Origin: an uncultured Gammaproteobacteria bacterium
Lineage (GTDB): Bacteria > Patescibacteriota > Patescibacteriia > Magasanikbacterales > UBA922
Assembly: GCA_964550845.1 (NCBI GenBank)
Contig: CAZKAD010000003.1
Location: forward strand, 447-64,446
Length of the DNA stretch: 64,000 bases
Direction of reading: 5' to 3'
A model generated the notes under the pieces. That model had not been told where the DNA came from, did not search any database, and saw nothing but the letters and a program-made list of their open reading frames with translations. Within the stretch, counting starts at the first letter, position 1, and every line of letters begins with the position of its first letter. Both the position numbers and the translations under genes were made by a program. Below, one piece after another: positions 6,928 to 56,182 of the stretch.

Positions 6928-9900
6928 ATGGCTGTCTTCTTCGCAAAAAGTCGGGACCCATTTTCAAACTTTTATCCGGTCTCATTTACTGTCGATGATT
7001 TGAAATACTCGAGTTCGGAACAGTATTTTATGGCCTCGAAAGCGAGATTCTTTAAAGATGTTGAAGCGGAGGACCAGATTATGGAAGCGGAATCTCCGAA
7101 AGAACAAAGAGAACTTGGACGTTCAGTCAAAAAGTTTGATCCAAGAGAATGGGATCGAGTTAAATTTAAAATCATGAAACAAGCCCTGTTGATTAAATTT
7201 CAACTTCCAAAGATGAAAAAGTTCCTTGTTGAGAGTCAACGAAAAGTTTTAATTGAAGCTGCACCTTGGGACGCGATTTGGGGAATTGGAATGGATGCTG
7301 ATAAAGCTGTGAATACACCCTTTCGTGAATGGGGAAAGAATGGACTTGGATTCTTATTGATGGAAGTTCGAGATTTTCTCCAAGGTAATTGGATTCAAGA
7401 AGACTTTGGTGTCTCAATGATTGGAAATTTCTATATCGGTGCACATCCAACTGAAGACCAAGCAAAGTTTCTTTTGGGAAAAGGAGTGAATCTATTTGTC
7501 TCCCTTGAGGAAAATCCAAGATATTTATCAGTTGTTGGTCAAGCATCGTCAAAAGTTTTTGCTCTTCCTACAGGAGGTATTCGAAATGATCAAGAGACAC
7601 TTGAATTTCTCGGTTGGTTACGAGATCAATATTTTCTCGGAAAAATCATTTATCTCCATAGTCGAAGAGGAATTGGAAGAACCGGATTGATTGCCAGTTT
7701 ATTTCTGAACTTGTTTCTCGGATATCAACCAAGTGATGCGTTGGATAAAGTTCGAAAATCTATTCATAGTCGAACTAATTTTAACCAGTCCTTCGGGACG
7801 TTTAAGCTTAAATTTATGCCTATTCCAGAAACTGCTTCACAAATAACTCAATTCACTCGTCTTGCCGACGGTGATAAAACCGATATTGATATGTCTGCTT
7901 ATACTCTTGAAGCAGAGAAAGCATGGATGACAAAACTTTCTGAAATTGAGCAAGACGACTTGATGACACGGGAAGATGTCGAATTGTATCAACAAATTGT
8001 ATCTCCTTCCTCTTCTTCAAAGGAAGTGAAAAAGGAAGATGAAATTAAACGTCTTGAAAAGTCTCTTAATCTTCCTGTTGGTGCAATTGAAGATGAGCAA
8101 GAAAATGACCCTCTTGCGGGTGCACTCGCAGAACTTGAACTTCGAAAGAGTGAAGAGAAGGAAGAACTTCGAAAGAGTGAAGAGAAGGAAGAACTTCGAA
8201 AGAGTGAAGAGAAGGACCCATTTGAAGCTGAACTTGAAGCGTTTGAAAATGAGGGTAAAAAAGATCCGCTCGAAGCTGAACTCGAGGCATTTGAGAATGA
8301 AGTAATCGAGCCTGACATCAAAACTTTCCTTGAAGAAGAGGCTAAAGTTGAAGTTAAACAACGAACTTCATTGACCGATCGAGATCTCGAAGAACAATTT
8401 CGACGTTTCGCTAATCAAGAACTTCATCTTCAAGCCGAGGAAGGTACATTTGTTCTTCAATCTGTCTTGAATGATATTTTCAATCGTTTTCTCGAACAAC
8501 AAAATATTCAAATTATCGATGTCGATAAGTTTGAACAAATCGCAATTCCCCTAATTGGAGAACCAGAGAAAATCGAATCAAAAATTCCCGAGTATGATGG
8601 AGATAAATATATTGAATCAAAAGTGTCAAAGTTGAATACTGGTTATCGAGTCAACTTTCGACTTCTTCCCGATGCAAATATTCGAATTACAAAAGTAAAA
8701 TCGCCAAAGCGATCACAAAAGAAGAAATCGAAAAGTGAAACTTTGTCTGAGAAAAAAGATGTTTCTCAATTGAGTCAAATTGAACCACCGAAAGAAGAGG
8801 TGAAAGAAGTGAAGATCGAGAAAAAACTTTCGTCATTTTTGTCCCATTTCTTCCCTGGCGATATTACCTTCATTCAACCGAATATCAATTTCACCGAAGA
8901 AACTTTGCATTATATGTCTCCAATGAGTAAAGCCGACAAACTCGCCGCATTACTTAAGACATATCCTCGTGCACAATTAGTTGTCGATGTTTTTGCTGGT
9001 ATTGGAGGCAATACACTTGGATTTGCTCGTGCAGGATTGCGTGTAGTCGCATATGAACGAGATCCGGAACGATTTAAAATGTTGAGAAATAACGTCCTTC
9101 ATTATCGGTTTGAGAAACAAGTGACGACGATTCGAGGAGAATTTAACCCCGGAAAAGATCTCGATATTATTCGAACTATTCAAAAGATTGAAGCAGACAA
9201 AGTAGTCTTCTTCTTTGATCCTCCATGGCTTCCATCTTTTGTCCAAAACTTTGACAAGTCACAATACATCTTAACTGGAATTACTCTTGCCGGTCAACTA
9301 CTTGAAGACATTGCTAAGAAAACTTTGCAGGAATATGGAGGATCGATATTTCATTTGCCTCCCGGTTACTCACTCAATTTGGCTGGAAGAATTGTTGATG
9401 ATAAATCTGATAACAAAGCGAGATTGATTTACTTTTTTGGCGATCAAATTCAAGCCAATATTGCCAAAGATTACAAACTGCAGATCAATTATGCAACTGA
9501 ATTTCCACGTGAACAATCCGAGGTCAAATATTCTCAAAATGAGTTAGTTGAACAACTGAAAGAAGTTGAACAACAAAAAGTGGAAGCTAAATTGTATCAA
9601 CCTCCGGTCAAAACAGTCTCGGTGGTCTTTCAAACTTTTCTGAATAAAAGCTTTCCTCGACGATCATATCAACATGAACCTTTCCATCCGAAAGCGGTTC
9701 ATAGTGGACAGCGAAAATTACTCTTGTCCGAGATTGAATTCTTGACTCGAGTTCTCTCAAAGGAAAAAACACTCGGTAAAGGCGGATCTTATACTATGCT
9801 TTACGTTGGAGCCGCGCCAGGAATTCATATTCCTTTGCTTGCAAATAAGTTTCCTGAAGTCAAGTTTATTTTGTATGATCCGGCCAAATTTGATATTGCT

Positions 9901-10542
9901 CCATCATCTCAGATCGAAATTCATCGAGAACTTTTCACTGATGAAAAAGTCGAAATGTACAAGAAGACTGAAAATTTATTGTTTGTGAGTGATATTCGAT
10001 CGACGCCGAAACAATTCGATCCAAATCAATCCGGCTTTGATTCGAGTTTTGAACAAGAGGTGATTTTTAACATGGAGCAACAAAAGAAATGGGTGACGGA
10101 ACTTCAACCACTCAGAAGTCTACTTAAATTTCGTCTTCCTTACAATGATCCTGAAAACCCTCGAGATGAACAGGAAACATTTAAATATCTTGATGGTATT
10201 CTTTTTTTCCAAGCTTATCCTCCAGAGCAATCAGGAGAAACTCGGCTTGAAGTTGGACTTCCGTTGAAAGAGACTGGTTATTTTCTTGCCCAGTATGAAC
10301 AGCAAATGTTTTATTTTAATACTCGATATCGGATTCAATCCTTCTCTCATTATTCACAATTTTACGGATGGTCTTATGATACTCTGAGAGAATACTTTAT
10401 TCTTCAAAACTATTACAAATTTCGTGGGATTATCGACAGTGATAAGAAGATCGAATATGATTTTCAAGATCACGACCGGATGGCTCACGGCCCGGAAAAG
10501 AAGATTTTTAACATTCTTCGTAACGCGGCAAAATACGGATAA
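6928..10542 (+). CDS. Multidomain RNA cap-modifying protein: NADAR (YbiA-like) domain, dual-specificity phosphatase / Mce1-like RNA triphosphatase-like domain with the catalytic Cys replaced by Ser, an acidic coiled-coil linker, a Tgs1-like cap guanine-N2 methyltransferase and a poxvirus VP39-like cap 2'-O-methyltransferase
   Basis: NADAR: FSNFYP...SSEQYFMASKARFF...LGR...W....IMKQALLIKFQ...LIEAAPWDAIWGIGMD...LGFLLMEVRDFL, which follows the YbiA consensus. PTP-like: IYLHSRRGIGRTGL, a Cx5R P-loop in which the Cys is Ser (agt at the catalytic position). Tgs1-like: VVDVFAGIGGNTLGFARAGLRVVAYERDP...FFFDPPW. VP39-like: HSGQRKLLLSEIEFLT...GGSYTMLYVGAAPGIHI...KFILYDP, compared with vaccinia VP39 FEGQKKLL..EF / VVYIGSAPGTHI. 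No guanylyltransferase KxDG motif was seen. Confidence 0.85.
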   Translation: MAVFFAKSRDPFSNFYPVSFTVDDLKYSSSEQYFMASKARFFKDVEAEDQIMEAESPKEQRELGRSVKKFDPREWDRVKFKIMKQALLIKFQLPKMKKFLVESQRKVLIEAAPWDAIWGIGMDADKAVNTPFREWGKNGLGFLLMEVRDFLQGNWIQEDFGVSMIGNFYIGAHPTEDQAKFLLGKGVNLFVSLEENPRYLSVVGQASSKVFALPTGGIRNDQETLEFLGWLRDQYFLGKIIYLHSRRGIGRTGLIASLFLNLFLGYQPSDALDKVRKSIHSRTNFNQSFGTFKLKFMPIPETASQITQFTRLADGDKTDIDMSAYTLEAEKAWMTKLSEIEQDDLMTREDVELYQQIVSPSSSSKEVKKEDEIKRLEKSLNLPVGAIEDEQENDPLAGALAELELRKSEEKEELRKSEEKEELRKSEEKDPFEAELEAFENEGKKDPLEAELEAFENEVIEPDIKTFLEEEAKVEVKQRTSLTDRDLEEQFRRFANQELHLQAEEGTFVLQSVLNDIFNRFLEQQNIQIIDVDKFEQIAIPLIGEPEKIESKIPEYDGDKYIESKVSKLNTGYRVNFRLLPDANIRITKVKSPKRSQKKKSKSETLSEKKDVSQLSQIEPPKEEVKEVKIEKKLSSFLSHFFPGDITFIQPNINFTEETLHYMSPMSKADKLAALLKTYPRAQLVVDVFAGIGGNTLGFARAGLRVVAYERDPERFKMLRNNVLHYRFEKQVTTIRGEFNPGKDLDIIRTIQKIEADKVVFFFDPPWLPSFVQNFDKSQYILTGITLAGQLLEDIAKKTLQEYGGSIFHLPPGYSLNLAGRIVDDKSDNKARLIYFFGDQIQANIAKDYKLQINYATEFPREQSEVKYSQNELVEQLKEVEQQKVEAKLYQPPVKTVSVVFQTFLNKSFPRRSYQHEPFHPKAVHSGQRKLLLSEIEFLTRVLSKEKTLGKGGSYTMLYVGAAPGIHIPLLANKFPEVKFILYDPAKFDIAPSSQIEIHRELFTDEKVEMYKKTENLLFVSDIRSTPKQFDPNQSGFDSSFEQEVIFNMEQQKKWVTELQPLRSLLKFRLPYNDPENPRDEQETFKYLDGILFFQAYPPEQSGETRLEVGLPLKETGYFLAQYEQQMFYFNTRYRIQSFSHYSQFYGWSYDTLREYFILQNYYKFRGIIDSDKKIEYDFQDHDRMAHGPEKKIFNILRNAAKYG

Positions 10543-25100: not shown

Positions 25101-26270
25101 ATGAAGATCATTGGTATTTCAGGTGGTGCCGGAACGGGAAAGGATTTTCTCCTTTCACAATTGTTTATTCCAATGCTGACTCGTGGAAAACCTTACGCAA
25201 TGATGGCTTTTGCCGATCACTTTAAAATGGAATGTATCGTGACAAAAGGATTAGATCGAGCCAAGGTGTTCGGAAGAAAGGATATTGAGACGAGAAAAAT
25301 TCTCCAGATTAAAGGTACAGAAGAAGGGCGGGACATCTACGGAGGTGATTTCTGGGTTCGTATTCTTCGTGAACGAATGATTCAATATCAAGCGAGAGGA
25401 ATCGAATATTTCTTTATTACTGATGTTCGTTTTCCTGAAGAAATTGCATTTGTGCGAAGTCAAGGAGGAGTAGTAATTAAAATTAATGCTCCTGATCGAT
25501 ATCTCGAAGCGATGAGAATTGAAAACGGTAATGATCCGTCGGTAGTTCAACATCGATCTGAAACATCTGTCAAAGAAGAAAAATTCGACTTTACGATTAA
25601 TAATCGATTGACTGATACTGATGTAGCCGATCAAGCTCGAGAAATTGTTTTGATTCTTCGCGAGAGATGGAAATATCAATGCACCGTGTTTTGCGATCTT
25701 GATGACACTCTGGTTGAATGTAATCGTCATTACAAGGAGATTATTGATCAAGTACTTGACAAAATACTGATTGCATATCCTCAGCTTGATCGAAATTTTC
25801 TTCGCTCGAAGTTTCTTGCCGAAGAACATTTAATTGGAGAATTATTCTTCTCTCGAGAAGCTTTTGCAGTCTCTTTGAGTAAATTGGGTCCTCCTGATGC
25901 TCTTGCTTTCACAAGAGAAATTTTCTCTCTTGGAATGAGCGTTCATCAATCTGAGTTTAATCTATTGCCTAGCGCAAGAGAAAATTTATTTACTTTAAAT
26001 AGGAAATTTCATCTCGTGATCACTACAGTTGGAGATCCAGTTGATCAAGTTCGAAAATTGTTTAAAAATGGTCTCTATGGTTTCAAGCTAGAATGCACCA
26101 GCAAAAAAGATGTCGGTTTTTTCCGGAATATGATCGAAAAATATCCATCGAAGCACTATGCTGTAATTGGAGATTCAATTCATGCTGATATTTTACCGGC
26201 AGTCAAAGCTGGTGTTCTTGATATTCATCACATTGAGAATCACAATTTCGGACAACTTCGGTTTGAATAA
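25101..26270 (+). CDS. Fusion of a T4 gp1-like deoxynucleoside monophosphate kinase (N-terminus) and a HAD-superfamily phosphatase (C-terminus)
   Basis: N-terminus MKIIGISGGAGTGKDF (P-loop), compared with T4 dNMP kinase MKLIFLSGVKRSGKDT, plus ITDVRFPEE...GGVVIKINAP. The C-terminus carries HAD motifs I (CDLDDTLV), II (VITTVG), III (K) and IV (GDSIHAD). Confidence 0.65.
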   Translation: MKIIGISGGAGTGKDFLLSQLFIPMLTRGKPYAMMAFADHFKMECIVTKGLDRAKVFGRKDIETRKILQIKGTEEGRDIYGGDFWVRILRERMIQYQARGIEYFFITDVRFPEEIAFVRSQGGVVIKINAPDRYLEAMRIENGNDPSVVQHRSETSVKEEKFDFTINNRLTDTDVADQAREIVLILRERWKYQCTVFCDLDDTLVECNRHYKEIIDQVLDKILIAYPQLDRNFLRSKFLAEEHLIGELFFSREAFAVSLSKLGPPDALAFTREIFSLGMSVHQSEFNLLPSARENLFTLNRKFHLVITTVGDPVDQVRKLFKNGLYGFKLECTSKKDVGFFRNMIEKYPSKHYAVIGDSIHADILPAVKAGVLDIHHIENHNFGQLRFE

Positions 26271-30781: not shown

Positions 30782-31345
30782 TTAAGGTGCAGGCGAAACT
30801 GCAAAATAAGATCCAGTTGCAAAGTTTCCCTCAGAGAGGAAGAATTGAATTGATGATACCGCGTTTGTGCTCCGGAACAAGCCTTGCATTGTTCCGGATC
30901 TTGCTTCGCTACCAGTTGTCACATGGTTACCAGCCGCAGTAATATTTTTAAACCAAGTAGTATTTTTACAATTTGGAATAATTATACTGGCATTACCGGA
31001 AATTCCAGCCGCAGCTCCATTAGCCGGAAAAGCGTCAAGTGAAAAAGAATTTTGATTGTAAGCGGCAACAACCGCGGTTGTATCATTGACTCCATATGAG
31101 GAAACTTGGTCATAAATGGTTCCCGTATTATTATTTAATCTCATGAACACATTAGCTTTTCCATCACTAGCAGTAAGTCGAGTATTGATATTAACTTGAA
31201 ATGACCCTCCAGCTGGAAGATTATTTAGGTTGACAGATGAGGTTGCAGCCGTTAACACCACACTTGTAACTGGGAGTACCGAGGCAATCAAATTTGTGCT
31301 TGGAATTTGATTCCTCAAATCTGCGCTTTGCGAAATTCTTGACAT
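30782..31345 (-). CDS. Fibre-family protein (shared C-terminal domain, no collagen repeats)
   Basis: The C-terminus ...QFFLSEGNFATGSYFAVSPAP shares the GNFATGS motif and the preceding beta-rich domain with the collagen-like ORFs. Confidence 0.6.
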   Translation of the reverse strand: MSRISQSADLRNQIPSTNLIASVLPVTSVVLTAATSSVNLNNLPAGGSFQVNINTRLTASDGKANVFMRLNNNTGTIYDQVSSYGVNDTTAVVAAYNQNSFSLDAFPANGAAAGISGNASIIIPNCKNTTWFKNITAAGNHVTTGSEARSGTMQGLFRSTNAVSSIQFFLSEGNFATGSYFAVSPAP

Positions 31346-31359
31346 CGGGGAGAAAGCTC

Positions 31360-31382
31360 GATTACTCTTTTTTGGAGTAATC
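31360..31382. terminator. Hairpin GATTACTCttttttgGAGTAATC downstream of 31408..32010
   Basis: 8-bp perfect inverted repeat 26 nt after the stop (minus strand). Confidence 0.5.
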
Positions 31383-31407
31383 GAAATTATTTTTATTCTT
31401 TTTCTTT

Positions 31408-32010
31408 TTACATCGGCACTACAGTGAAAACCGAACCAGTGGCAAAGTCTCCGTCGGATGAGGACAAAGTTACTGAGCTAATTGCACCAGTGCTTCGGAA
31501 GGTCAATTGAGACACTGCTACACGTCCGTCAGTTCCAGATGAGGCATGCGAGCACATCACGTGAATTGGTTTGAACCAATTAGTATTCACTCCAGCAATC
31601 AAGATCTGGGCTTGTCCAGCATTTCCGGTAGCAGATGCATTAGCAGGGAAAACACCAATGGTACCACTGGTTTGGGCATAAGCAATTGAACCGGTTGTTG
31701 TTGATCCGGTGTTTGAAACTGCAATACCATCATAGTTGGCTCCGGTATTGCTATTGCATCGGATAAAAACAGTTCCAATTCCAGTTGCTCCCAACAAGCG
31801 AGACATAACTGAAATTCTCAAATTTGCTGCCAGAGGCAAGGGTGACAAAGTCACTGATGATGTGGAGGCAGCCAAAGCGATTTGTACCGGAGGAACAAAT
31901 CCAACCGTCTGAAGGCCAGGGACGGTATTCAATAGAGCGGGATTTTGAGTGAGTCGCGAAGCCATTGAAGATGAAGTTTCTTTCAGAATCAAATGAAAAA
32001 ATTTTTTCAA
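31408..32010 (-). CDS. Fibre-family protein (shared C-terminal domain, no collagen repeats)
   Basis: C-terminus ...VTLSSSDGDFATGSVFTVVPM. Paralog of 30782..31345. Confidence 0.6.
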   Translation of the reverse strand: MKKFFHLILKETSSSMASRLTQNPALLNTVPGLQTVGFVPPVQIALAASTSSVTLSPLPLAANLRISVMSRLLGATGIGTVFIRCNSNTGANYDGIAVSNTGSTTTGSIAYAQTSGTIGVFPANASATGNAGQAQILIAGVNTNWFKPIHVMCSHASSGTDGRVAVSQLTFRSTGAISSVTLSSSDGDFATGSVFTVVPM

Positions 32011-32014
32011 AAAT

Positions 32015-32602
32015 TTACTTCTTTTCTTTCTCAGGGATCGCGATCATTACATCATTTTCGCAATATCCCGGAAGGAAAGAAAATGAGTAAGTTGTATTCA
32101 GCTCGGTAAGAGATTTTCGAATTTCGGACAAAAAATCAATCTTTCCATAAGACTGTTCTCCCCATGGATACATATTCTTCAGAATTCGGACGTCATCAAT
32201 ACAAATAATATGATCTTTTCGAGGCAAACATTTGAGTGCTTTTAATTCATGAAGCAGAGGACAAAGATTTCGATGGCCCTGGATCTGACTGTTGTCAACG
32301 TGAGCATCGAAGAAAAATAAAGTTCTTTGATTGAAATCTGGATTACCTTCAAGGACTTCGGCAATATCATTACTATCCATTTGCAAGAGAGTTAATCGAT
32401 GAATTGAAAGATCTCGGGCGAAAGCTTGTTTTCCAAGGTCCACCCAATCTTTGCGAAGTTCGACTGAGTACAACTTGCGAAAATCACATTGAATCGCTTT
32501 GCGCAAACTTACGTTGCGACGAGGGTCATACAGCCCTGTTTCGAAATAATTTACAATTTGATGTTTGGCTCGGATTTGTTCAAGATCAAATTCAATCGGC
32601 AT
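32015..32602 (-). CDS. Hypothetical protein
   Basis: 195-aa ORF with only a 4-nt gap to the upstream gene. No recognisable motif. Confidence 0.6.
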   Translation of the reverse strand: MPIEFDLEQIRAKHQIVNYFETGLYDPRRNVSLRKAIQCDFRKLYSVELRKDWVDLGKQAFARDLSIHRLTLLQMDSNDIAEVLEGNPDFNQRTLFFFDAHVDNSQIQGHRNLCPLLHELKALKCLPRKDHIICIDDVRILKNMYPWGEQSYGKIDFLSEIRKSLTELNTTYSFSFLPGYCENDVMIAIPEKEKK

Positions 32603-32644
32603 CTTTTCTTTTCAAAGAAAAGGTTTAACTATCTCAAAAGACTT

Positions 32645-33511
32645 TTATTCATCTCTCACAACTGAAAGAAAATTTAGATGATCAACTACGCAGGCAGCAG
32701 CATTGAAATGTCCTCCGCCTCCAAATTGCTTAGCAATTGCCGAACAATCGACTTTGTCCTTTCCGCGAAAACTGACTGAATATCGCCCATTAAAAGTTTT
32801 CGAATAAAGTACGACAAAATCAATATTATATTGTCTATTCAGAAAGTCTCCAAGGTCACTTCGAAAAGCAGCTTCACATTCTCCAACCAAAACGTTATAT
32901 ATTTTTTGATCGAACGTCAAAGTTGCTCGAACAAACTTTTTAGCCAGTTCTTCCAGCACAAGTTGTTGTCGTCGAAGCAATTCTTTTCCATCTCGAATAA
33001 ATTTATCCAAATTCCAATATTGATGAAGAATTTGGATGTCGACTGGAGTTGGACTTGAAGCAAGAATAACCGCGTTGATCGCCTTTGATTCGTGAAGTTG
33101 AAATTTCCATAGATCTCGATCTCCGATATAATCAATAATTTCGGGTCTTTTCTTTCCAGGGAAGAAATAATCCCAAGTTAATTGAGCTCCACTTCGATCG
33201 AGATCGAAAATAAAATTAGTTTTTGTTTTAATCAATTCTGATTCGTTAGCTGTCTTATGATGATCAATTACAGTTACTTTTTTGGCTCGACAAATTAATT
33301 CTTCCATTACTTTTGGTTCAAAAGTGAGATCGAGAAATAAAATTCTCTGACCATCGACAAAAGAAGGACAATCTTTTGTATTGTAGGGAAAGCCGAGAAT
33401 TTCAACTTTGACTTTATTTTCGTCTGCCCACTTTTGAGCGATCCATCCGGATGCAGCTCCATCATAACAAGGCGAATGATAAAGAATATAATCAAACTCT
33501 TCAATAGTCAT
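32645..33511 (-). CDS. DHH-family phosphoesterase (NrnA/RecJ-like, with a DHHA1 domain)
   Basis: Motif I ILYHSPCYDGAAS, motif III VIDHHK and the DHHA1 motif FGGGGHFNAAA. Confidence 0.7.
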   Translation of the reverse strand: MTIEEFDYILYHSPCYDGAASGWIAQKWADENKVKVEILGFPYNTKDCPSFVDGQRILFLDLTFEPKVMEELICRAKKVTVIDHHKTANESELIKTKTNFIFDLDRSGAQLTWDYFFPGKKRPEIIDYIGDRDLWKFQLHESKAINAVILASSPTPVDIQILHQYWNLDKFIRDGKELLRRQQLVLEELAKKFVRATLTFDQKIYNVLVGECEAAFRSDLGDFLNRQYNIDFVVLYSKTFNGRYSVSFRGKDKVDCSAIAKQFGGGGHFNAAACVVDHLNFLSVVRDE

Positions 33512-33532
33512 TCTTTTTCTGTAAAGAAAAAG

Positions 33533-33595
33533 AAACGTTTAACCAATCCCTCAGGACATTTAGCCACTTCAAAGAGTCCTTCGGGACGTTTAACC
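33533..33595. promoter_or_regulatory. Two copies of the conserved intergenic palindromic element in reverse orientation (GTTTAACCAATCCctcAGGAC...; AGTCCttcgGGACGTTTAACC)
   Basis: Direct reading. Located between the stop of 33601..34827 and the start of 32645..33511 (tandem, minus strand). Confidence 0.6.
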
Positions 33596-33600
33596 AATTC

Positions 33601-34827
33601 TTATTGAGCCGGAGCCGAAAGATCTCCTTCTTCCTTCTTTTTCAGGATCGATTGATCAAGAATAACTTTATCCGGTTTGACATCATCGAGATCGGTACGC
33701 CCTTCCTTAGCCTTAATCACCAATTCTCTTGCAGTCGCTCGGGCATCAACATCATCTTCGTTGAAGAATTTCAAATCGGAACTAACTTGAATTTCTGGGA
33801 GACGATCTGGAACAATTGCAAGATCAAATGGATCTCTGCCGACCAAAAAGCGAAGAATGTTATTTTTCTCATCTGGCACTCCTGCTTCTCGACAGGCGTG
33901 ACGATATCGATCAGCTGCCTCTTTCTCAAGAGCAGGATTCTTTGCATCCATGGTTTGAATCAATCCAATAGTTGCCATCAAAGTATCCTTCAAACGTTTC
34001 ATATTCTTCAAACTCTCATAAATGGCGAAGAACAAATTGGCTCTCTTGACACGAAGAGTAATATATTGTTCGTTTTCATCTACTTCTCCACGAATAGCAG
34101 CATCTTCCTTCTTCTTCAAATTTTCAGCTCGAGCCCGAGCATCTTCAATCTCCTTCTTCTCATGCTCTCGACGCTTTTTCATATCATCACTCATCTCTTT
34201 CTGAAGCTCTTGTTTGAGACCAACCGAGTTTACCTCGAGAACAAAATCGTCGTTATCGTCATCAACCAGAGGAAGAGGATAACCAACTTGACCCATATGA
34301 ATATGATGATAGGAGTCACATTTGTTAATAATTTCAGTTGCGTGAGCTTCGAGATCGGTTTCGTTTGAGAAATTACCTCGATTTTTCAGAATACCATACA
34401 AACCTTTTGAATTCGGTTTCGCTCCTGGAGCGGGAATAAAAGAAAAAGCACAATAATTTTGTCCGTGAGGAATGACACTATCGGCAAATCGAGTTTCAAT
34501 TCGAGGATATTTTGTCACAACCTTTTTGTAAGCCTCTTGAAGTTCGAGGTCAGTCATGCGAATAAACTTTGAGTCAACAGCATTCTCTCTCGGCTTTCTC
34601 GTAGGTTGTTCGGTCAAAAATAGAGTTTCATCTGTATCAGTCAATCGATATCCCTGTTTCTCAAGATGATTGAGCAAACTTGGGACATTGATCCAATTGC
34701 GAGGATTCGATTCCACTGGTTTCGGAGGATCCTGAGTCTTGGTCTCTTGGACCGGAGCTCGCGTCTCCTTCGGATCCGTTTCTTGCTTCGAATCTTGCTT
34801 TGGTTGTTTGACTCTCTTCTTTGGCAT
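33601..34827 (-). CDS. Hypothetical protein with a basic N-terminus and a charged coiled-coil segment
   Basis: 408-aa ORF with a segment EMSDDMKKRREHEKKEIEDARARAENLKKKEDAAIRGE. Confidence 0.65.
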   Translation of the reverse strand: MPKKRVKQPKQDSKQETDPKETRAPVQETKTQDPPKPVESNPRNWINVPSLLNHLEKQGYRLTDTDETLFLTEQPTRKPRENAVDSKFIRMTDLELQEAYKKVVTKYPRIETRFADSVIPHGQNYCAFSFIPAPGAKPNSKGLYGILKNRGNFSNETDLEAHATEIINKCDSYHHIHMGQVGYPLPLVDDDNDDFVLEVNSVGLKQELQKEMSDDMKKRREHEKKEIEDARARAENLKKKEDAAIRGEVDENEQYITLRVKRANLFFAIYESLKNMKRLKDTLMATIGLIQTMDAKNPALEKEAADRYRHACREAGVPDEKNNILRFLVGRDPFDLAIVPDRLPEIQVSSDLKFFNEDDVDARATARELVIKAKEGRTDLDDVKPDKVILDQSILKKKEEGDLSAPAQ

Positions 34828-35018
34828 CTTTCTCGTTTAAAATCTTCTTTAAGTTTGCCATTTCGATTAAAATTCGATCAATTTTCTCTTCGGCTGTTGG
34901 TTCTCGTCCATAGTAAATGTAGCGTCCGAGATAATAAAGTCCGGTTATTGAACCTATTAAGATATCTTTTCCGAGTTGAAAAAGAAAGGAAGCCATCCTT
35001 TCTTTAAGGAAAAATATT

Positions 35019-35351
35019 TTATCTTTTTCCGAGAAGTTCGAAGATAAAACTAATCAATTCAAAGTTATCAACGTAATTTTTATGAATCGAATAGCAAATC
35101 TGATTTTGAGATGAAATAGTTAATTGCTCACCATCTTCAGAGGGAAATCGTTCAACAATCCAAAGACTGTAATTCTCATCATTCAGCAATTTTTTAATCA
35201 ACTGAATCTCCTTTTCATCTTCTGAACCGGGTATTGGACGCATTATTGTTTCAGCCATCAATAAGGAGTGCCAAAATTTTTTATCTTTGTTAGAGTATAA
35301 TGCTGATCTTTTGAATTCGTAGCGAAACTTTATAGGATCCATTTTATTCAT
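35019..35351 (-). CDS. Hypothetical small protein
   Basis: 110-aa ORF whose start overlaps the stop of the upstream gene (ATGA-type 4-nt overlap at 35348..35351). Confidence 0.5.
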   Translation of the reverse strand: MNKMDPIKFRYEFKRSALYSNKDKKFWHSLLMAETIMRPIPGSEDEKEIQLIKKLLNDENYSLWIVERFPSEDGEQLTISSQNQICYSIHKNYVDNFELISFIFELLGKR

Positions 35352-37354
35352 TTTTCTCCAAGTTGAAATCTTTTTCTTGACAATGATTCAGTCAAGTCTT
35401 CAATTTTTTCCGCTGGCTGATACATTTGAATTGAGCCAAATTTCTCCATCACTTCTTCGAGAGGGGCTGATGCTTGAGTTTTCCTTCCTCGTCGAACTCC
35501 GTTCAGATCAAGGGGATTGATAAACATTCGATGGAGAGGAATGTTTCTTTGAATTTGACATCCTTTGTATTCCTCTTGAGGGAAATACAGCTTACCTTCG
35601 GGGGTATAAGCTTCATTAGTAATTGCAGGAATAATTACGGGTCCTCGTTCAGTAATCGCTGGAGCAATAACGAAGTGCCGGAATTTTTCTCGCTCATACT
35701 TGAATGCCAACATCGATTGGACAAAATCTTCATAAAGCACCAAAATATCAACATCAAAATGCAATAAAATCAAAGGAGTATTTTTATCGACATTTAGGTC
35801 GTCATTGGAGAGGCATGGGAAATGAACCGTAAAAGTTTGGGTCGATTTTCTTCCGGGTGAAGAAGTTTCGATTAATCCAAAAATAAACCTCCTTAATCGA
35901 GAGAGTGTACTTCTCCGAATATAACCATTTTGAGCTTCATCGAGAACATTTTGACAATAACGAACAACCCCATAGAAATATCTACGAATCTTATCACTCG
36001 GTGCTAAAATCTTAAACCAATTGATTGGATCAACTTTCTCATATCGAGCTCTCAATTCTCGAGTTCCTCGATCTGCTTCTTCGATATAAGGCGCGACTAA
36101 TCCGCGAACATGTTCGTCAAGATTACCAGTTAATTGAACCGGAATTTGTTTATTTCTTTGAACTCGAAGAATCTTATTAATTTCTCCTGCAAGATCTTCA
36201 ACCATTGCAATTGCATTCTTTCCATCGGGAAAGACGTTCAAAAATCTGGTGTACAATCTTTCTCCAAATTCACTTAGATAACCCATCATTTGTTCAAATG
36301 AATAGCAATAAACCGAATTTCCAAATGAAATGATTAAGTTCGAATTCTTTTTCAAATGTTGATCTACATCAATCTCTGCATTTCCCATCTCAGTTATTTG
36401 TAGACACTTGTCAGGTAATGATTCTTCTTGATTCAGAAAATTAACTGGAGCTCGTTCGTTACTTGAACTGGTGTAATAAACCTTACCATCAGCAATCAAA
36501 TAAGTTACACCTGATTTGTAATCATGGAAAAATTGAGGCATCTCGTCTTCTCCTCGGGCAAGGAAATTCCAATGATTTCGAAATCCGATTGCAACTGTTG
36601 GTCCGTAGCTTGCCGTACCTCCATTTTTCTTTGATTTTTCAGGCCAAGGCAAATTGTTGTTTAAAATGTAAGAGAGTGGATAATCAGCGTTCTTCAAATG
36701 GATCAATGTTGTCCAATTAAATTTAAATCCGCGATCCTGATACTTATGAATTCGTTTGAGTGTTCGAAGCCATTCAAAAGGAGATTGAGTTTCAATTGCC
36801 TTCATTCCGATTGAAGTTTCTTTCTCTGGTAAATAAGTCAGATCAAACATAGTGAAAAATTTTTGTCCATCAAAAAATACTTTACAAACATCGATGTCAA
36901 AATTATTGATTGCGCTCAAAATTGGGTAGGTACTTTCTTTCTCATCTTCATCGGTGTAAAGAACAATAATTTGCACACGAGGAAATTTAGCCTTTTGAAT
37001 ATGATGAAGAAAATGAATATGTTTAACCGTACTTCCAAATCGTAGATAATCTTCGCTTAAACTCTCGGTTCCAAGTTGGCTTGGTAGTTCATAGTCAAGT
37101 TGAAGAAAGTAACTGATTAAATTTTTAACTCCTCTTTGATTTGAGGTCCAAATGTCAACATCTGAATCTGACCATACAACATTCATGATCATTTGAAGAG
37201 GGAAACTTCCGGCGACAACTGCTTGGGACGATCGAAGCACATTTCCAAAGTCTGGGAAGATATTGAATAAATCTTGAACGTTTTTATGGAGCACAACTTT
37301 GTCAATTCGGAGTTGTCCACTTGAAAGTGGTTTGACCTTTTCTTTCAGATCCAT
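35348..37354 (-). CDS. Large protein with a pol-beta-type nucleotidyltransferase-fold motif; tandem paralog of 37391..39592
   Basis: AGSFPLQMIMNVVWSDSDVDIW fits hG[GS]-x(9-13)-DhDh. A third acidic site is FDIDVCKVF. The two copies share FEWLRTLKRIHKYQDRGFKF / YEWFRTLRRVEKYMSRGFSF. Confidence 0.7.
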   Translation of the reverse strand: MDLKEKVKPLSSGQLRIDKVVLHKNVQDLFNIFPDFGNVLRSSQAVVAGSFPLQMIMNVVWSDSDVDIWTSNQRGVKNLISYFLQLDYELPSQLGTESLSEDYLRFGSTVKHIHFLHHIQKAKFPRVQIIVLYTDEDEKESTYPILSAINNFDIDVCKVFFDGQKFFTMFDLTYLPEKETSIGMKAIETQSPFEWLRTLKRIHKYQDRGFKFNWTTLIHLKNADYPLSYILNNNLPWPEKSKKNGGTASYGPTVAIGFRNHWNFLARGEDEMPQFFHDYKSGVTYLIADGKVYYTSSSNERAPVNFLNQEESLPDKCLQITEMGNAEIDVDQHLKKNSNLIISFGNSVYCYSFEQMMGYLSEFGERLYTRFLNVFPDGKNAIAMVEDLAGEINKILRVQRNKQIPVQLTGNLDEHVRGLVAPYIEEADRGTRELRARYEKVDPINWFKILAPSDKIRRYFYGVVRYCQNVLDEAQNGYIRRSTLSRLRRFIFGLIETSSPGRKSTQTFTVHFPCLSNDDLNVDKNTPLILLHFDVDILVLYEDFVQSMLAFKYEREKFRHFVIAPAITERGPVIIPAITNEAYTPEGKLYFPQEEYKGCQIQRNIPLHRMFINPLDLNGVRRGRKTQASAPLEEVMEKFGSIQMYQPAEKIEDLTESLSRKRFQLGEK

Positions 37355-37390
37355 TTTTGGATCGGAAATTTTTATTCTTTTTCTTTCGAA

Positions 37391-39592
37391 TTATTCTTTT
37401 CTTCCATTCCCAGATGAATACCGAAGAATTTCTTCTTCATTGATTGGCTCTTCTTCCGGTTCAAGTCCCGAAGGGACGGATTCAAGTCCCGAAGGGACGG
37501 ATTCAACCGTTTGTTGAATTGGTGGAGGAGGTGATAATTGTTCAATCACTAGAGGAGATCTCCGAATTCCTTTGAGTCGTTCGGCATCTTCGGGTTGAAT
37601 ATTCTTTTTGTCAACAACAGTGTAACTCTTTCCATCAGGTCGATAAATGTGCTGTTCCTTTCGATAGAGTTGATAAACAAGTTTCTCCGATCCAGCTTGA
37701 CAGTGATCGGCCGAAATGTACAATTCGCTTTGTTTTTGTTCATCGTTGACTAAACCATAATTAATTGTGTAATCGAGACGTTTGTGATATCCTCGTTCAT
37801 CTTTCATTGGCTTGAGGACAAAATGTCTCGCTCCAAAAAAGAAGGAGTCAATTGCCATCGTAACCTGTTTAAGTGGAATCAGGAAGTTTCCAGTGAGTCG
37901 AAGAAGAAAATATCCATCTTCAAGAGGGGGATTTTTTGGACTTTTATCTTTACCTGAACAACCAAAGAAAATATTCGAATTTCTTTCACTCGTTTTCCCT
38001 GTGATGTAATATTGATTCTTAATCAGATTAAAAATGCCGTAAACATTGCCTATCATCACTTCGGAATTGTTTGACGCGTCGTCGTTCAAATCCGACAAAC
38101 TATTTGCAATATAGTTCAAGTCTGGATAGTGCCTCAATACACGATTAAAGTTGACATGTTTACTCACTTCTTCTTCAAACTTTTCAAACTGCTCGACCCA
38201 ATTCTTAATGAGTTTATTGAGAAAAGGGAGGATTGAACGATTGCACTGAAATTCTTCCAGATTCCAATTGCAAGAATTTTTGTAAAGAAATCTCAAAGCA
38301 TCGCGATAAGACATCACAGTTGAGCAAAATGGAGTCATAAATTCTTGAGCTTTTGCCAAAAGAGCAATTTTAGGGGAAGATTCAATTCCTTCTGAAGAAT
38401 TTACTTGGAATTGTCTAAGCTCGGGAAATTCAAATCCAAACTCGTTCGGGTCAAACGAAAAAAGTTTGAGAAAATGTTCAATTGAGAAGCAATAAATTTG
38501 ATCTCCAACTTGAATAGTCGCTTTGAAAGTATCTTCAATTTGATCGAATTTTGTCTCATCAAACATAATATAATCGAAGCATTTTGTCGGAAGATCTTCT
38601 TCAATCAATTCGATCGCCTTTCCGAAATCTTTCTTTATTAATTCGATTGAATAGATTACTTCACCATGAATATAGAAATGAAGATGATTGAGTGTCAAGA
38701 CAAGATGGGGAATTTCACCAATTTTTGAAATTTGATCGGCAAGTGAATTCCATTTATTGACATAAGCGTCGACAAAATTTGTACCATATTCATGTGGATA
38801 ATAAGGATATGGCTCTTCTGGTTTTGGATAAACTTTGGCGTACTTTCGAATAAAATTGTACATCGGAGATTCATGAAGAGCATAGTCGAGTCCGGACCAG
38901 TCGAATGAAAATCCTCTTGACATATACTTTTCAACACGACGAAGCGTTCGGAACCATTCATATGGAGACTGTTCAAAAATGGCATTTGAATTGAGTGATG
39001 TTTTACGTTGTTTCAAGTTGGTATTTTCAAATGAAGTGATCAGTTTCTCTCCATCTGTAAACACACAACAAGCGTCAATGTCAAACGATTCGACGAGATC
39101 TTTTAAAGCAACGTTTGCATGAGTTAAAATTGCTTGAACATCAGGTTTCCTTCTATTTGTATCTTGGTAAACGTAGATTGTTCTCACCCATCTCTTCAAT
39201 CTTGAATATGTGTCAGATTCAGTCAAGACAGTTCCATGCTTTACAGGAAGATTATATCCCTGTGCAAGGAGATAAGAAGAGAGTTTTCGAAGTTTATCTT
39301 TATCAGCAATCCAAATATCTACATCCGAATCGCCCCATTTTTCTCCAATTAAATGTTGAAGGGGGAAACTACCTGCAATAATCATTTCATTTTGAGAGAG
39401 AAGATCTTGGAGTCCTGGAAATTGATTGTCAAACCAATTCTGTAGTGAATCTGGCAATCGATGAATCGAAACTTTTCTCTGAACATCAGAAGCTTCACTG
39501 ACTGATTTCAATAAGAAGGGGAATTTATTTTCTGCGATCCCTTCGTTATCGAGCTGCGATGAAGTCGCGCCCATGTTGTCTTTTCCATTCAT
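37391..39592 (-). CDS. Large protein with a pol-beta-type nucleotidyltransferase-fold motif; tandem paralog of 35348..37354
   Basis: AGSFPLQHLIGEKWGDSDVDIW and FDIDACCVF. The C-terminus has a duplicated SVPSGLE repeat (the DNA repeat ccgaagggacggattcaagtc x2 at about 37460..37505). Confidence 0.7.
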   Translation of the reverse strand: MNGKDNMGATSSQLDNEGIAENKFPFLLKSVSEASDVQRKVSIHRLPDSLQNWFDNQFPGLQDLLSQNEMIIAGSFPLQHLIGEKWGDSDVDIWIADKDKLRKLSSYLLAQGYNLPVKHGTVLTESDTYSRLKRWVRTIYVYQDTNRRKPDVQAILTHANVALKDLVESFDIDACCVFTDGEKLITSFENTNLKQRKTSLNSNAIFEQSPYEWFRTLRRVEKYMSRGFSFDWSGLDYALHESPMYNFIRKYAKVYPKPEEPYPYYPHEYGTNFVDAYVNKWNSLADQISKIGEIPHLVLTLNHLHFYIHGEVIYSIELIKKDFGKAIELIEEDLPTKCFDYIMFDETKFDQIEDTFKATIQVGDQIYCFSIEHFLKLFSFDPNEFGFEFPELRQFQVNSSEGIESSPKIALLAKAQEFMTPFCSTVMSYRDALRFLYKNSCNWNLEEFQCNRSILPFLNKLIKNWVEQFEKFEEEVSKHVNFNRVLRHYPDLNYIANSLSDLNDDASNNSEVMIGNVYGIFNLIKNQYYITGKTSERNSNIFFGCSGKDKSPKNPPLEDGYFLLRLTGNFLIPLKQVTMAIDSFFFGARHFVLKPMKDERGYHKRLDYTINYGLVNDEQKQSELYISADHCQAGSEKLVYQLYRKEQHIYRPDGKSYTVVDKKNIQPEDAERLKGIRRSPLVIEQLSPPPPIQQTVESVPSGLESVPSGLEPEEEPINEEEILRYSSGNGRKE

Positions 39593-39626
39593 TTAAAAAA
39601 AGTTTTTTCAAATTAAATACATTCCA

Positions 39627-49769: not shown

Positions 49770-49822
49770 AAAATTGATTAAATTTCTGATTTTTGTTAAT
49801 CAACAAAAATCAATTAATAGTA

Positions 49823-50770
49823 ATGTCCTCAAAGAAAATCGAATTTGAGAGAGGAGTTCCTCGAACTGAGTTTCTCTTTCAACTTGAAGCTCTGACAAGA
49901 GCTGCGAAAGGATTTCGAAAAAGAGCATTCACCAACGCAATTGAATCACTGAAGGGAATCTCAAACGAACTCCTCTATTACAACGATCTTCATGAATTGA
50001 AGGGATTTGGAGAAGGAATGTTAAATCGGTTTCTTGAATATCAGTCAACTGGCCAACTCAAAGAGCTAATTTTTTCTGCCGAAGAACAAGAACGCAAGCG
50101 AGTACTCGATCTTTTTCAAGGTATCTATGGAGTTGGAGAAGTTACTGCAACTGTTTGGTATGAGAAAGGTTTGCGTTCACTTGAAGATTTGATTAAATTC
50201 AATATTCCCTTGACCGATCATCAACGAGTTGGATTGTATTATTACAATCAAATTAATTCGCGAATTGAGCGAAAAGAGATTGATGAATTTAACCAACAAC
50301 TTCAAAAGAAAGTTGTTGAGTTTAATCAAGAAAATAAGGTACAAATTGAAATGAAAATATGTGGTAGCTATCTTCGAGGTAAAACGACTTCTGGTGATAT
50401 TGATGTAATCGTTCGAGAAAAGAATGATCAGTTACCTTGTTTAATTGATAGTCTATTGAAATATTTATATCCACTTGTTCGACATATTCTTGGTCAAGGT
50501 AATGTTAAAATTTTGACTCTTGGAGGATCAACAGATATCCATCGAAGAATCGACTTTGAACTCGTTGAGAATGCAAGATGGCCATTTGCCTTATTGTATT
50601 TCACTGGTTCAAAAGATTTTAATCGACAAATGAGAGAGATTGCAAAAAAGAAAGGTCTTCTTCTCAATCAACGAGGCTTATTTTACGGCAATCAAGAATT
50701 TCTTTACAAAGAAGAAAAAGATATTTTTGATGCCCTCGGAATGACTTACTTATCTCCTGAACAACGATAA
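49823..50770 (+). CDS. DNA polymerase family X (Pol beta-like)
   Basis: GIYGVGEVTATVWYEKGLRSLEDL (HhH), CGSYLRGKTTSGDIDVIV (nucleotidyltransferase motif; compare Pol beta GSFRRGAESSGDMDVLL) and FALLYFTGSKDFNRQMR. Start taken at MSSKK (49823), 46 nt downstream of AAAATTGA. Confidence 0.85.
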   Translation: MSSKKIEFERGVPRTEFLFQLEALTRAAKGFRKRAFTNAIESLKGISNELLYYNDLHELKGFGEGMLNRFLEYQSTGQLKELIFSAEEQERKRVLDLFQGIYGVGEVTATVWYEKGLRSLEDLIKFNIPLTDHQRVGLYYYNQINSRIERKEIDEFNQQLQKKVVEFNQENKVQIEMKICGSYLRGKTTSGDIDVIVREKNDQLPCLIDSLLKYLYPLVRHILGQGNVKILTLGGSTDIHRRIDFELVENARWPFALLYFTGSKDFNRQMREIAKKKGLLLNQRGLFYGNQEFLYKEEKDIFDALGMTYLSPEQR

Positions 50771-54376: not shown

Positions 54377-56182
54377 ATGCCTCTTCGCAAACTGGCTTTC
54401 TATGTGAATCAACTTGTTTCGACCTCTCTAAATGATTTCTTCTTGAATTGTCTCAAGGAAATTCAAGAACAGACAAAATCTAATTCGGCGAATCTTCGGG
54501 TCTTTAACGGTCCGACAATTCAAACCTCAACAGATTCAATTGAAACAAATATTCATTCGGAGAAAGCAATCATTACGCGATCTATTTATTTTGACGAAAA
54601 AGAATCATGGATACCCTTATTATCTGGAGATAAAGTCTGTGGTCTAATTGGCTTACTCAGTCCAAAAGAGCGTCCAAATCAGTTTGTTGAACAACTAATC
54701 AACTTAATTGTTGCTCGAATTCTATCGATCAAGAAAGAATTACCAAATGATTCTTTTATCTCGAACATGAGTCATGAATTGAGAAATCCTTTGAACGGGT
54801 TACTGGGATATCTTCAAATTCTTGAATCATCGGGGTTAAATTCTGCTCAACAAGGATATCTCTACTCGGCACAAAAATGCGGTTTGAGTTTAATTCGAGT
54901 CGTCAACGATATCTTAGATTACTCAAAACTAATGTCAGGTAAAATGAAGTTAAACGTACAAATTACCAATTTGTATGATTTACTTGGTTTTGTCGAAGAA
55001 ACTCTCCATATTTCAATCCAAGAAAAAGGACACACTTTTACCCTCTTTTTTCATCCAGATGTCCCAAAGATGATTTTAACCGATTCTCAAAAATTAGCTC
55101 AGATTTGTATTAATCTGCTAAGTAATGCAATTAAATTCACACCGGCGAAAGGAAAAATTAACTTTGAAGTAAATCTGATGATCAAAGAAAAAGAATATCT
55201 TATCTTTAAGATTGCCGATACTGGTTGTGGCATTTCAAAAATTCAATCGGATGAATTGTTTCGAACTTTTACTCGACTTCATCATTCAAGAGAAGAGGGA
55301 ACAGGGCTTGGATTAGTTATTTCGAAAAAACTAACCGAATTGCTCTCAGGAACTATTCGTCTTGAAAAATCTTCATCTGAAGGTTCGGAATTTGTTTTTG
55401 AAATTCCACTTCAGAGAGCTCAAGAAGTTCGAAGTTCTCAACTTGGATTTAAGAAAGAAGTTTGTTTATTTGTTTCAGAGAAAGTTCAAACAGAATTAAA
55501 TCCACTGCTATTACGATGGGGAATGAAAGTATTTAATGTTCAATCTTTTTCAGAACTTTTAACAATCTTGAGCAGTTATGTATATGATTTTGAACTTGTC
55601 ATTCTTGAAGATGGAGAAAAAGAATTTGAACAAAATTCGAATAAGATTTGGGAAATTTGTCCAAAAATTCCAATTATACATGCCTGTAAAATCTTACCTC
55701 AAAAGAAGAGTGACTCATATTTTCATCTGCTTAATTTTACTCCAACAGAATTGTACAATTGTATTGCAAGGGCCTTGGAAAATTCTCTCTATTTGAAAAA
55801 GAAAAATTCGATTCGACTTGATCTGAAGAAAAAGATTTTGATTGCTGAAGATGATCCAAGTGGAAGGGAAATTTTGTCTAGATTACTCCAATCAATTGGT
55901 TTCTCGGAAATTGATTGTGCCGAAGATGGTCTTCAAGCCTTGAATATGATTCAAAAGAAAAGTTATTCTTACTTATTCATTGATTTGAAAATGCCGGTTA
56001 TTGACGGGTATGAAGTAATTACCACAATAAATAAGAAACCAAATAAGACAATGAAATTAATTTGTGTTTCAGCATCTGTTACAGATGAAGATAAACAATT
56101 TTGTCAAAAAGCATCTGTTCCATTTCTTGCAAAACCGGTTCAATTTCGAAATCTACAAGACTTGATGGTTTCATTGAGTTAG
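54377..56182 (+). CDS. Hybrid sensor histidine kinase: N-terminal sensor region, HisKA, HATPase_c, a degenerate middle domain and a C-terminal receiver (REC) domain; soluble
   Basis: H-box MSHELRNPLNGLLGYLQIL. N box LLSNAIKFT. G1 DTGCGI. G2 GTGLGLVISKKL. Receiver: ILIAEDDPSGREIL...LFIDLKMPVIDGYEV...LAKP. No TM helices were seen. Confidence 0.85.
   Translation: MPLRKLAFYVNQLVSTSLNDFFLNCLKEIQEQTKSNSANLRVFNGPTIQTSTDSIETNIHSEKAIITRSIYFDEKESWIPLLSGDKVCGLIGLLSPKERPNQFVEQLINLIVARILSIKKELPNDSFISNMSHELRNPLNGLLGYLQILESSGLNSAQQGYLYSAQKCGLSLIRVVNDILDYSKLMSGKMKLNVQITNLYDLLGFVEETLHISIQEKGHTFTLFFHPDVPKMILTDSQKLAQICINLLSNAIKFTPAKGKINFEVNLMIKEKEYLIFKIADTGCGISKIQSDELFRTFTRLHHSREEGTGLGLVISKKLTELLSGTIRLEKSSSEGSEFVFEIPLQRAQEVRSSQLGFKKEVCLFVSEKVQTELNPLLLRWGMKVFNVQSFSELLTILSSYVYDFELVILEDGEKEFEQNSNKIWEICPKIPIIHACKILPQKKSDSYFHLLNFTPTELYNCIARALENSLYLKKKNSIRLDLKKKILIAEDDPSGREILSRLLQSIGFSEIDCAEDGLQALNMIQKKSYSYLFIDLKMPVIDGYEVITTINKKPNKTMKLICVSASVTDEDKQFCQKASVPFLAKPVQFRNLQDLMVSLS

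Follow-up and report, generated by a model that had tools for sequence, protein, structure and literature searches.

Two adjacent genes in a 64,000-nucleotide stretch of DNA (contig CAZKAD010000003.1, positions 447 to 64,446; hereafter, the window) encode large paralogous proteins whose N-terminal domain is homologous to that of Gad2, an anti-Gabija protein of bacterial viruses, and matches in fold the head and neck of class II CCA-adding tRNA nucleotidyltransferases. The window itself looks like part of a giant virus of the Mimiviridae/Imitervirales kind. We give about an even chance to the proposal that both proteins are active, template-independent nucleotidyltransferases (NTases) of the Gad2 clade, built on the head and neck fold of class II CCA-adding enzymes and poly(A) polymerases (PAPs), in which a C-terminal module probably chooses the target. 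As part of the same proposal, the viral Gad2 clade would be a diverged offshoot of that fold.

The two genes, here called open reading frames (ORFs) A and B, lie on the minus strand at 35348..37354 (668 amino acids, aa) and 37391..39592 (733 aa in the longest ORF), respectively, and are 36 nucleotides (nt) apart. An initial annotation, made from the sequence alone, had given their coordinates, lengths and strand correctly and had described them as tandem paralogs. BLASTP supports this description, as it aligns A and B over 361 aa with 31% identity (E=1e-43), a value that argues for true paralogs and not for a chance resemblance. When A, B and their orthologs are brought together in a seven-sequence alignment, invariant positions are observed over the whole length of the proteins, the C-terminal third included, and the C-terminal two-thirds contain four invariant cysteines and one invariant histidine.

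Homology to the phage protein Gad2

The Gad2-family region comprises the first ~210-220 aa of both proteins. In A, the domain is located at 36650..37282 (aa 25-235; minus strand, as are all the features of both genes described below) and contains G49-S50, D65, D67, Q128, F152-D153, E194, R197, R201, K204-Y205 and R208. In B, it is located at 38807..39475 (aa ~40-262) and contains G74-S75, D90, D92, Q153, F170-D171, E212, R215, R219, K222-Y223 and R226; here, the hidden Markov model (HMM) of the N-terminal domain, A3, gives E=9e-64. The precomputed Pfam annotation of the window proteins assigns both genes to PF26128 (Gad2), B without reservation (E<=1e-5) and A with a match marked as weak (E<=1e-3), and the orthologs carry the same label. 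Direct Pfam scans of A, B and the orthologs returned no family, and experimentally verified Gad2 proteins are likewise unmatched in such scans, where the PF26128 model is missing; consequently, the empty scans are uninformative on Gad2.

The homology is observed in profile comparisons with the Gad2 sequences listed in supplementary table 10 of bioRxiv 10.1101/2023.05.01.538930. A profile of 64 family members matched the experimentally verified Brevibacillus Gad2 (BlGad2) alone with an hhalign probability of 96.2% (E=2.7e-9), and a 33-member profile of the N-terminal domain matched an alignment of eight Gad2 homologs with a probability of 98.6% (E=1e-15, 158 columns). Additionally, all eight homologs were matched individually by the A3 HMM. 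The motifs common to the giant-virus domain and Gad2 are IAG[GS], DxD, IQxI, FD..C and R..KY..[RK]G[FY].

Gad2, the second anti-Gabija protein of SPbeta-like phages, is a protein of ~400 aa whose NTase domain is an AlphaFold2 prediction, and the SPbetaL7 protein is toxic when expressed in bacteria (bioRxiv 10.1101/2023.05.01.538930). Such toxicity would fit an action on a cellular substrate. In the proteins of Bacillus phage SPbetaL7 and of the Brevibacillus laterosporus prophage (PF26128), the domain homologous to that of A and B comprises ~160 residues and, like Gad2, A and B are virus-encoded and lack sequence kinship to other NTase Pfam families. However, there are also clear differences. 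While Gad2 (~400 aa; ~200-480 aa across the family) belongs to phages and prophages of bacteria, A and B are considerably larger, with 668 and 733 aa, and are encoded by what appears to be a giant virus of eukaryotes. Past the NTase domain the proteins are unrelated, the hhalign match stopping at Gad2 residue ~170, and the additional conserved residues of the giant-virus clade (W69, Y103, R105, E194, W195 and R197) are not matched by any Gad2 residue when the consensus sequences are aligned by hhalign.

No phage relatives were found by tblastn among 50,697 phage records when the N-terminal domain of B and two family members of ~400 aa were used as queries, and a literature search found no paper tying Gad2 to giant viruses. 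The domain family is already known (Pfam Gad2) but uncharacterised, and it is the architecture and the viral context that are new.

Fold and active site of the N-terminal domain

The N-terminal domain of A (residues 25-235), modelled with AlphaFold from a 33-sequence alignment, reached a pLDDT of 87.7 and a pTM of 0.85, with the elements in the order strand, G-S, helix, strand (DVDIW). When this model was compared with the PDB using Foldseek, the top 38 matches were all class II CCA-, CC- or A-adding tRNA nucleotidyltransferases (E from 7.5e-5 to 2.8e-2, TMq 0.45-0.60). As ~200-216 columns were aligned for a query of 211 residues, the match takes in both the head and the neck of these enzymes; the same outcome was obtained with the full-length model of A. 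The initial annotation had proposed an NTase fold for the GS...DxD region, and such a fold is what the model matches, in agreement with the homology to Gad2 (a predicted NTase) and with the near-invariance of the corresponding G, D, D and D residues in 129 relatives.

The candidate enzymes considered in that annotation do not fare equally well. tRNA-NTase-like enzymes are the closest, while E. coli poly(A) polymerase I, TUT4 and Cid1 obtained far weaker Foldseek scores than CCA enzymes, with marginal values for Cid1 (E=0.11) and TUT4 (E=0.15-0.5) over ~110-135 columns; for Cid1, TUTases and eukaryotic PAPs (NTP_transf_2 plus PAP_assoc) there was no Pfam match either. Structures of cGAS, OAS, Mab21 or CD-NTases were absent among the Foldseek matches listed for either model, and neither a Mab-21/OAS match in Pfam nor a CD-NTase match in PADLOC was obtained.

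Class II tRNA NTases and bacterial PAP I (PF01743; PDB 3wfq, 3h37, 5hc9, 1miv, 1vfg and 3aqk) share the head and neck fold with the domain of A. In class II CCA enzymes, as in A and B, a G-[GS] turn is followed by DxD; in a low-confidence alignment, the conserved basic helix of A and B falls at about the position of the CCA-enzyme motif D (EDxxR...RF..LGF). By contrast, the body and tail with which CCA enzymes bind tRNA are absent in A and B, where an unrelated module is found after residue ~235.

Both domains satisfy the signature of the pol-beta superfamily, i.e., an hG[GS] turn, a DxD in the strand that follows and one more conserved acidic position. The G-S...DxD catalytic motif is encoded at 37154..37210 in A (aa 49-67) and at 39317..39373 in B (aa 74-92), and its family-invariant acidic pair, D65/D67 in A, corresponds to D90/D92 in B. 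The motif strings quoted in the initial annotation (AGSFPLQMIMNVVWSDSDVDIW, AGSFPLQHLIGEKWGDSDVDIW, FDIDVCKVFFDG and FDIDACCVFTDG) are all found in A and B, although the actual spacing, G-S-x14-DxD, is one residue longer than the x9-13 that it had quoted. The third acidic motif described there is also real and invariant (D153 in A); in a low-confidence alignment with CCA enzymes it falls on the Asp of motif B (RRD) and not on a demonstrated third metal ligand.

Residue conservation was counted over 129 family members that cover the domain (A numbering). G49, D153 and Y205 are present in 129/129, as is S or G at position 50, and almost the same is observed for D67, K204 and R208 (128/129 each), R201 (127/129), D65 (126/129) and Q128 (123/129). 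As these relatives are only ~16-27% identical to ORF A, their conservation argues for a working active site, and we consider it likely that A and B are catalytically competent.

The wider family, the C-terminal module and the divergence of the two copies

Although word-indexed sequence searches with A and B found orthologs only, the use of the seven-sequence profile in an exhaustive HMMER search returned 808 cluster representatives (50% identity) at E<=1e-3, all of them unnamed metagenomic proteins and nearly all matching profile positions ~35-220. A scan of IMG/VR with the seven-sequence alignment found no relatives. At the structural level, Foldseek yielded 101 matches at E<=1e-3 in BFVD, which include uncharacterised proteins from, among other viruses, Sylvanvirus, Klosneuvirus, Harvfovirus, Tupanvirus, Satyrvirus, Catovirus, Moumouvirus and Pandoravirus, as well as phage proteins whose annotation is nucleotidyltransferase, poly(A) polymerase head domain or tRNA nucleotidyltransferase. 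For instance, paralogs from Sylvanvirus (A0A3G5AJV2), Klosneuvirus (A0A1V0SIK6) and Tupanvirus (A0A6N1NTW3) have the same NTase domain (E down to 1e-11, TMq up to 0.71); they are annotated as uncharacterised or ORFan and differ from A and B in their partner domains. Fusions of the NTase-like domain to F-box, BTB or ankyrin domains are observed in Orpheovirus, Cedratvirus, Klosneuvirus, Pandoravirus, Hyperionvirus, Megavirus and Terrestrivirus; therefore, the domain is part of several large multigene families of giant viruses. The architecture of A and B, in which the NTase domain precedes a split module, is found in a minority of the 150 best matches (e.g., P0026 and P0074). The catalytic domain of Gad2 is, in other words, the core of a very large and wholly unannotated family of giant-virus paralogs, which suggests one enzymatic trick common to the viruses of bacteria and eukaryotes.

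The regions that follow the NTase domain, described in the initial annotation as long unique C-terminal extensions, are neither unique to each protein nor confined to this pair: they share homology with one another and with a module present in many other proteins, in some of which it stands alone. Some matches of the exhaustive search cover profile positions ~507-630 only, and three such proteins (272-599 aa) have the middle and C-terminal regions contiguous and no NTase domain. A profile of the stand-alone module matched A and B over residues ~253-613 with an hhalign probability of 99.2% (E=2e-19), residues ~365-505 of A being an insertion. In A, this insertion is modelled as long helices, while the rest of the module consists mostly of beta strands.

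In the DNA of A, the first half of the module extends over 36260..36607 (aa ~250-365; C317 and C350), the helical insertion over 35840..36259 (aa ~366-505) and the second half over 35510..35839 (aa ~506-615; C514, H560 and C599). In B, the first half is found at 38438..38806 (aa ~263-385; WN..LA, PxKC and YC motifs), the insertion, placed by homology with the model of A, at 37988..38437 (aa ~386-535) and the second half at 37643..37987 (aa ~536-650; FFGC, YFLLRLxxNFLIP and SADHCQAGSEKLVY). The motifs of the module as a whole are WN..LA, PxKC, YC, IF[YF]xC, YxLLRLxxNFLVP and [ST]ADHCQxGSxKLxY, and its invariant cysteines are C317, C350, C514 and C599 (A numbering). We have thereby defined a new module that is separable from the enzyme domain and recurs both alongside it and in its absence. 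The possibility that its HCQxGSxK sequence is the CX5R loop of a PTP-like phosphatase was rejected, as Lys takes the place of the Arg and, in the model of A, the Cys is followed by a beta strand instead of the helix of phosphatases.

The differences between A and B are mainly found in the last module motif, the N-terminus and the tails. The module profile (A5 HMM) matches B with E=5e-24 (whole protein) and A with E=7e-7, the weaker match of A being due to its degenerate last motif, which reads KGCQIQRN instead of ADHCQxGSxK. In the tail of B, the initial annotation had noted a duplicated VESVPSGLE; a repeat does exist there, but the peptide that is exactly repeated is SVPSGLE, encoded twice by a perfect 21-nt unit present in 2.2 copies (37460..37506). 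This repeat is kept in an ortholog with 96% identity and missing from one with 74%.

At the other end of the protein, B-type proteins have a conserved MG start. The upstream ATG that opens the longest ORF of B (MNGKDN) is out of frame in the relative L006 and missing in L001, so that the true start of B is probably Met7, at position 39574, which would yield a protein of 727 aa beginning with MGATSS. Among Met-starting family members, 16/146 start with MG and 14 of these 16 fit the N-myristoylation pattern MG[^EDRKHPFYW]xx[STAGCN][^P], which points to a probable membrane anchoring of B and of some other family members through myristoylation. The start of A is MDLKEK.

Both genes, together with their neighbours (DUF5832 and DHHA1), are syntenic in two metagenomic relatives and, consequently, the duplication is older than the split of these viruses. 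One relative has an A-type protein of 674 aa (52% identity) and a B-type protein of 619 aa (39%), and the second is closer. Compared with the latter (Nei-Gojobori method), the ratio of nonsynonymous to synonymous substitutions (dN/dS) amounts to 0.13 in A and 0.25 in B and stays below 0.33 in every domain (0.10 and 0.31 in the NTase domains of A and B, respectively). As dN/dS is low throughout, A and B are real genes constrained by purifying selection. The helical insertion was graded as the least constrained region, with a dN/dS of 0.26 in B, where the value of the NTase domain is 0.31.

Nucleotide identity to L006 along 31206-39601 forms a mosaic, with 94-99% in most of ORF B (91% in one 300-nt bin), 78-86% in ORF A, 56% over a small ORF at 35109-35402, up to 100% at 34509-34808 and ~77-88% elsewhere. 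In the same pair of genomes, the synonymous divergence (dS) amounts to 0.11 in B and 0.78 in A. Taken together, the mosaic identity and the unequal dS suggest recombination between related virus strains.

Possible functions and genomic surroundings

The match to the head and neck of CCA enzymes yields a concrete hypothesis, the addition of nucleotides to the 3′ end of an acceptor, together with a defined set of residues. In the mechanism that we propose, the G-S turn and D65/D67 (D90/D92 in B) would hold a nucleoside triphosphate with Mg2+, while D153 and the conserved basic neck helix (E194, R197, R201, K204, Y205 and R208) would shape the nucleotide pocket. The nucleoside monophosphate (NMP) would then be passed to an acceptor hydroxyl, for which the 3′ end of a polynucleotide is the foremost candidate, with a probability that we place slightly under even. 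The body and tail of CCA-type enzymes would have been swapped for the two-part, four-Cys module, which would probably select a target or partner. After the old tandem duplication, B would have retained the ancestral module motifs and the MG start and A would have lost both, which suggests sub- or neo-functionalisation; the myristoylation-like start of B would imply membrane attachment.

As for the biological role, the likeliest one would be the manipulation of a nucleic-acid or defence pathway of the host or of a competing virus, and not housekeeping RNA maturation, because counter-defence is the one role demonstrated for Gad2 and the family has undergone a heavy expansion in giant viruses. 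A stronger form of this idea, which we think unlikely, is that the Gad2-type NTase is a general viral weapon of phages and giant viruses, and that A and B disarm eukaryotic defence by modifying host or rival nucleic-acid ends or an immune nuclease pathway that senses such ends. If this were true, the substrate of A and B would also reveal how Gad2 defeats Gabija, and the separable four-Cys module would be a new target-recognition domain.

Several observations weigh against our preferred reading of A and B as Gad2-clade NTases with a CCA-type fold. The full-length AlphaFold model of A, good over residues 30-210, is only moderately confident overall (pLDDT 65.7). A Pfam match to PolyA_pol (PF01743) is absent at E<=10, a search of the PDB sequences with the family profile (hmmsearch) recovered no CCA enzyme, and a local hhalign comparison with three PDB CCA sequences was weak (P=0.007, probability 5.7%). 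Its register is nevertheless the expected one: G-S falls on G-G, DxD on DxD, F152-D153 on the R-D of RRD and EWLRTLKRIHKY..RGF on EDxxR..RF..LGF, with E194..R197 on the D..R of EDxxR; RRD and EDxxR are reportedly the motifs defined as B and D, respectively, by Li et al. in 2002. Accepting that register, RRD is replaced by (x)FD, with the Asp kept and the Arg residues lost, and the neck helix may be misplaced by one residue, so we treat the alignment as a lead. The module has no recognisable relative in Pfam, NCBIfam or the PDB, which makes its role in target selection a guess. A counter-defence role is likewise an extrapolation, as the hosts of giant viruses are eukaryotes, in which we know of no Gabija system. 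Finally, the mechanism of Gad2 was listed as not yet elucidated in a review of February 2026 (PMC12904381).

Among the alternatives, A and B could be housekeeping 3′-end enzymes for viral RNA, either adding or repairing the CCA of tRNAs or acting as poly(A)/poly(U) polymerases on viral transcripts. The nearest solved folds are indeed those of CCA-, CC- and A-adding enzymes and of E. coli PAP I, and some BFVD neighbours, from phages and pithovirus, bear the annotation tRNA nucleotidyltransferase or poly(A) polymerase. However, the family is that of Gad2, and not of CCA enzymes, at the sequence level, where PolyA_pol is unmatched and RRD appears not to be conserved; an unrelated module takes the place of the tRNA-binding body and tail; no tRNA genes are found in the 64-kb window; and hundreds of divergent paralogs, some fused to F-box, BTB or ankyrin domains, are not what a single-copy enzyme would show. 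We therefore regard this possibility as improbable, although, if A and B were ordinary RNA-tailing enzymes, the result would still be a better annotation for many giant-virus genes now called ORFans.

It is quite unlikely that the proteins are signalling enzymes, as suggested in the initial annotation, or nucleotide-pool enzymes, that is, messenger synthases similar to cGAS, OAS or CD-NTases, or makers of inhibitory nucleotides, acting without a macromolecular acceptor. The intact NTase active site would be compatible with such activities, but all the fold neighbours are polynucleotide 3′-end transferases, and cGAS, OAS, Mab21 and CD-NTases do not appear among the Foldseek matches listed, nor does Pfam return Mab-21/OAS. 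There is also a slim chance of NMPylation (e.g., adenylylation) of a protein or small molecule by an aminoglycoside/KNTase-like enzyme whose module docks a protein target. The structural neighbours, which are class II polynucleotide transferases with the neck included, and the poor score of the H. pylori ‘putative nucleotidyltransferase’ 4ok0 (E~0.2) speak against it, in spite of the generic G[GS]...DxD signature of the superfamily and the fusion of relatives to F-box, BTB and ankyrin domains, which mediate interactions between proteins. It is very unlikely that A and B are structural, virion or scaffold proteins without catalysis in which the NTase-like fold is merely retained, since neither catalytic residues that are near-invariant in 129 divergent relatives nor purifying selection on the NTase domain are expected of a dead enzyme, even though N-myristoylation, which large DNA viruses use for virion membrane proteins, is suggested by the starts of B-type proteins and 14 other relatives and the early-promoter motif described below is missing upstream of both genes.

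Other searches returned matches that we set aside. RT_UG36, a defence-associated reverse transcriptase of PADLOC, matched residues 95-170 of B (E=1.8e-4, 18.5 bits), i.e., the region between DxD and FD, where there is no reverse transcriptase fold, and is probably spurious. The PDB sequences matched by phmmer and hmmsearch were spurious, namely MatB, a malonyltransferase, a serpin and the KomC SIR2 protein (E=0.01, on a W..SDIDI string). Scans of PHROGs and NCBIfam produced sub-threshold noise, such as RecX with 19 bits for a cutoff of 194.

The octamer AAAATTGA, which we take to be the mimivirus early-promoter motif, is found ~20-60 nt upstream of many ORF starts (5996, 6887, 11293(-), 29542(-), 44928(-), 49770, 50796, 57783(-) and 63106(-)); its total in the window, 23, equals the chance expectation, and none is located upstream of ORF A or B. 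Scans of the window for bacterial-type promoters and terminators gave chance levels only. Over the start codon of ORF A, ~30 nt past the stop of ORF B, there is a palindrome (37348-37363; GATCCAAAAATGGATC) with a stem of 6 bp and a loop of 4 nt, which could be a mimivirus-style hairpin 3′-end signal for B or a product of chance. On the other side of ORF A, a 110-aa ORF without Pfam match (35019-35351, minus strand) has 4 nt in common with the stop end of ORF A. No other stretch of the locus is nearly as divergent as this ORF (the 56% nucleotide identity given above), which was called as a gene in L005 (110 aa) and L006 (100 aa), while it is missing from the more distant L001.

The giant-virus character of the window is seen in its gene content, which includes a collagen-repeat protein, HtrL_YibB, DUF5832, DUF2738, DHHA1, two protein kinases, SWIB and a ResIII/DEAD helicase. 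Several other genes lie on the plus strand. A 1204-aa protein (6928-10542) is a fusion of NADAR, RNA cap guanine-N2 methyltransferase-like and poxvirus VP39-like domains, VP39 being the poly(A) polymerase regulatory subunit and 2′-O-methyltransferase of poxviruses. A second fusion (25101-26270) joins a deoxynucleotide monophosphate kinase to a HAD hydrolase. Additionally, a complete family X DNA polymerase, with HHH_8, fingers, palm and thumb, is encoded at 49793-50770, and a hybrid histidine kinase with HisKA, HATPase_c and response-regulator receiver domains at 54377-56182.

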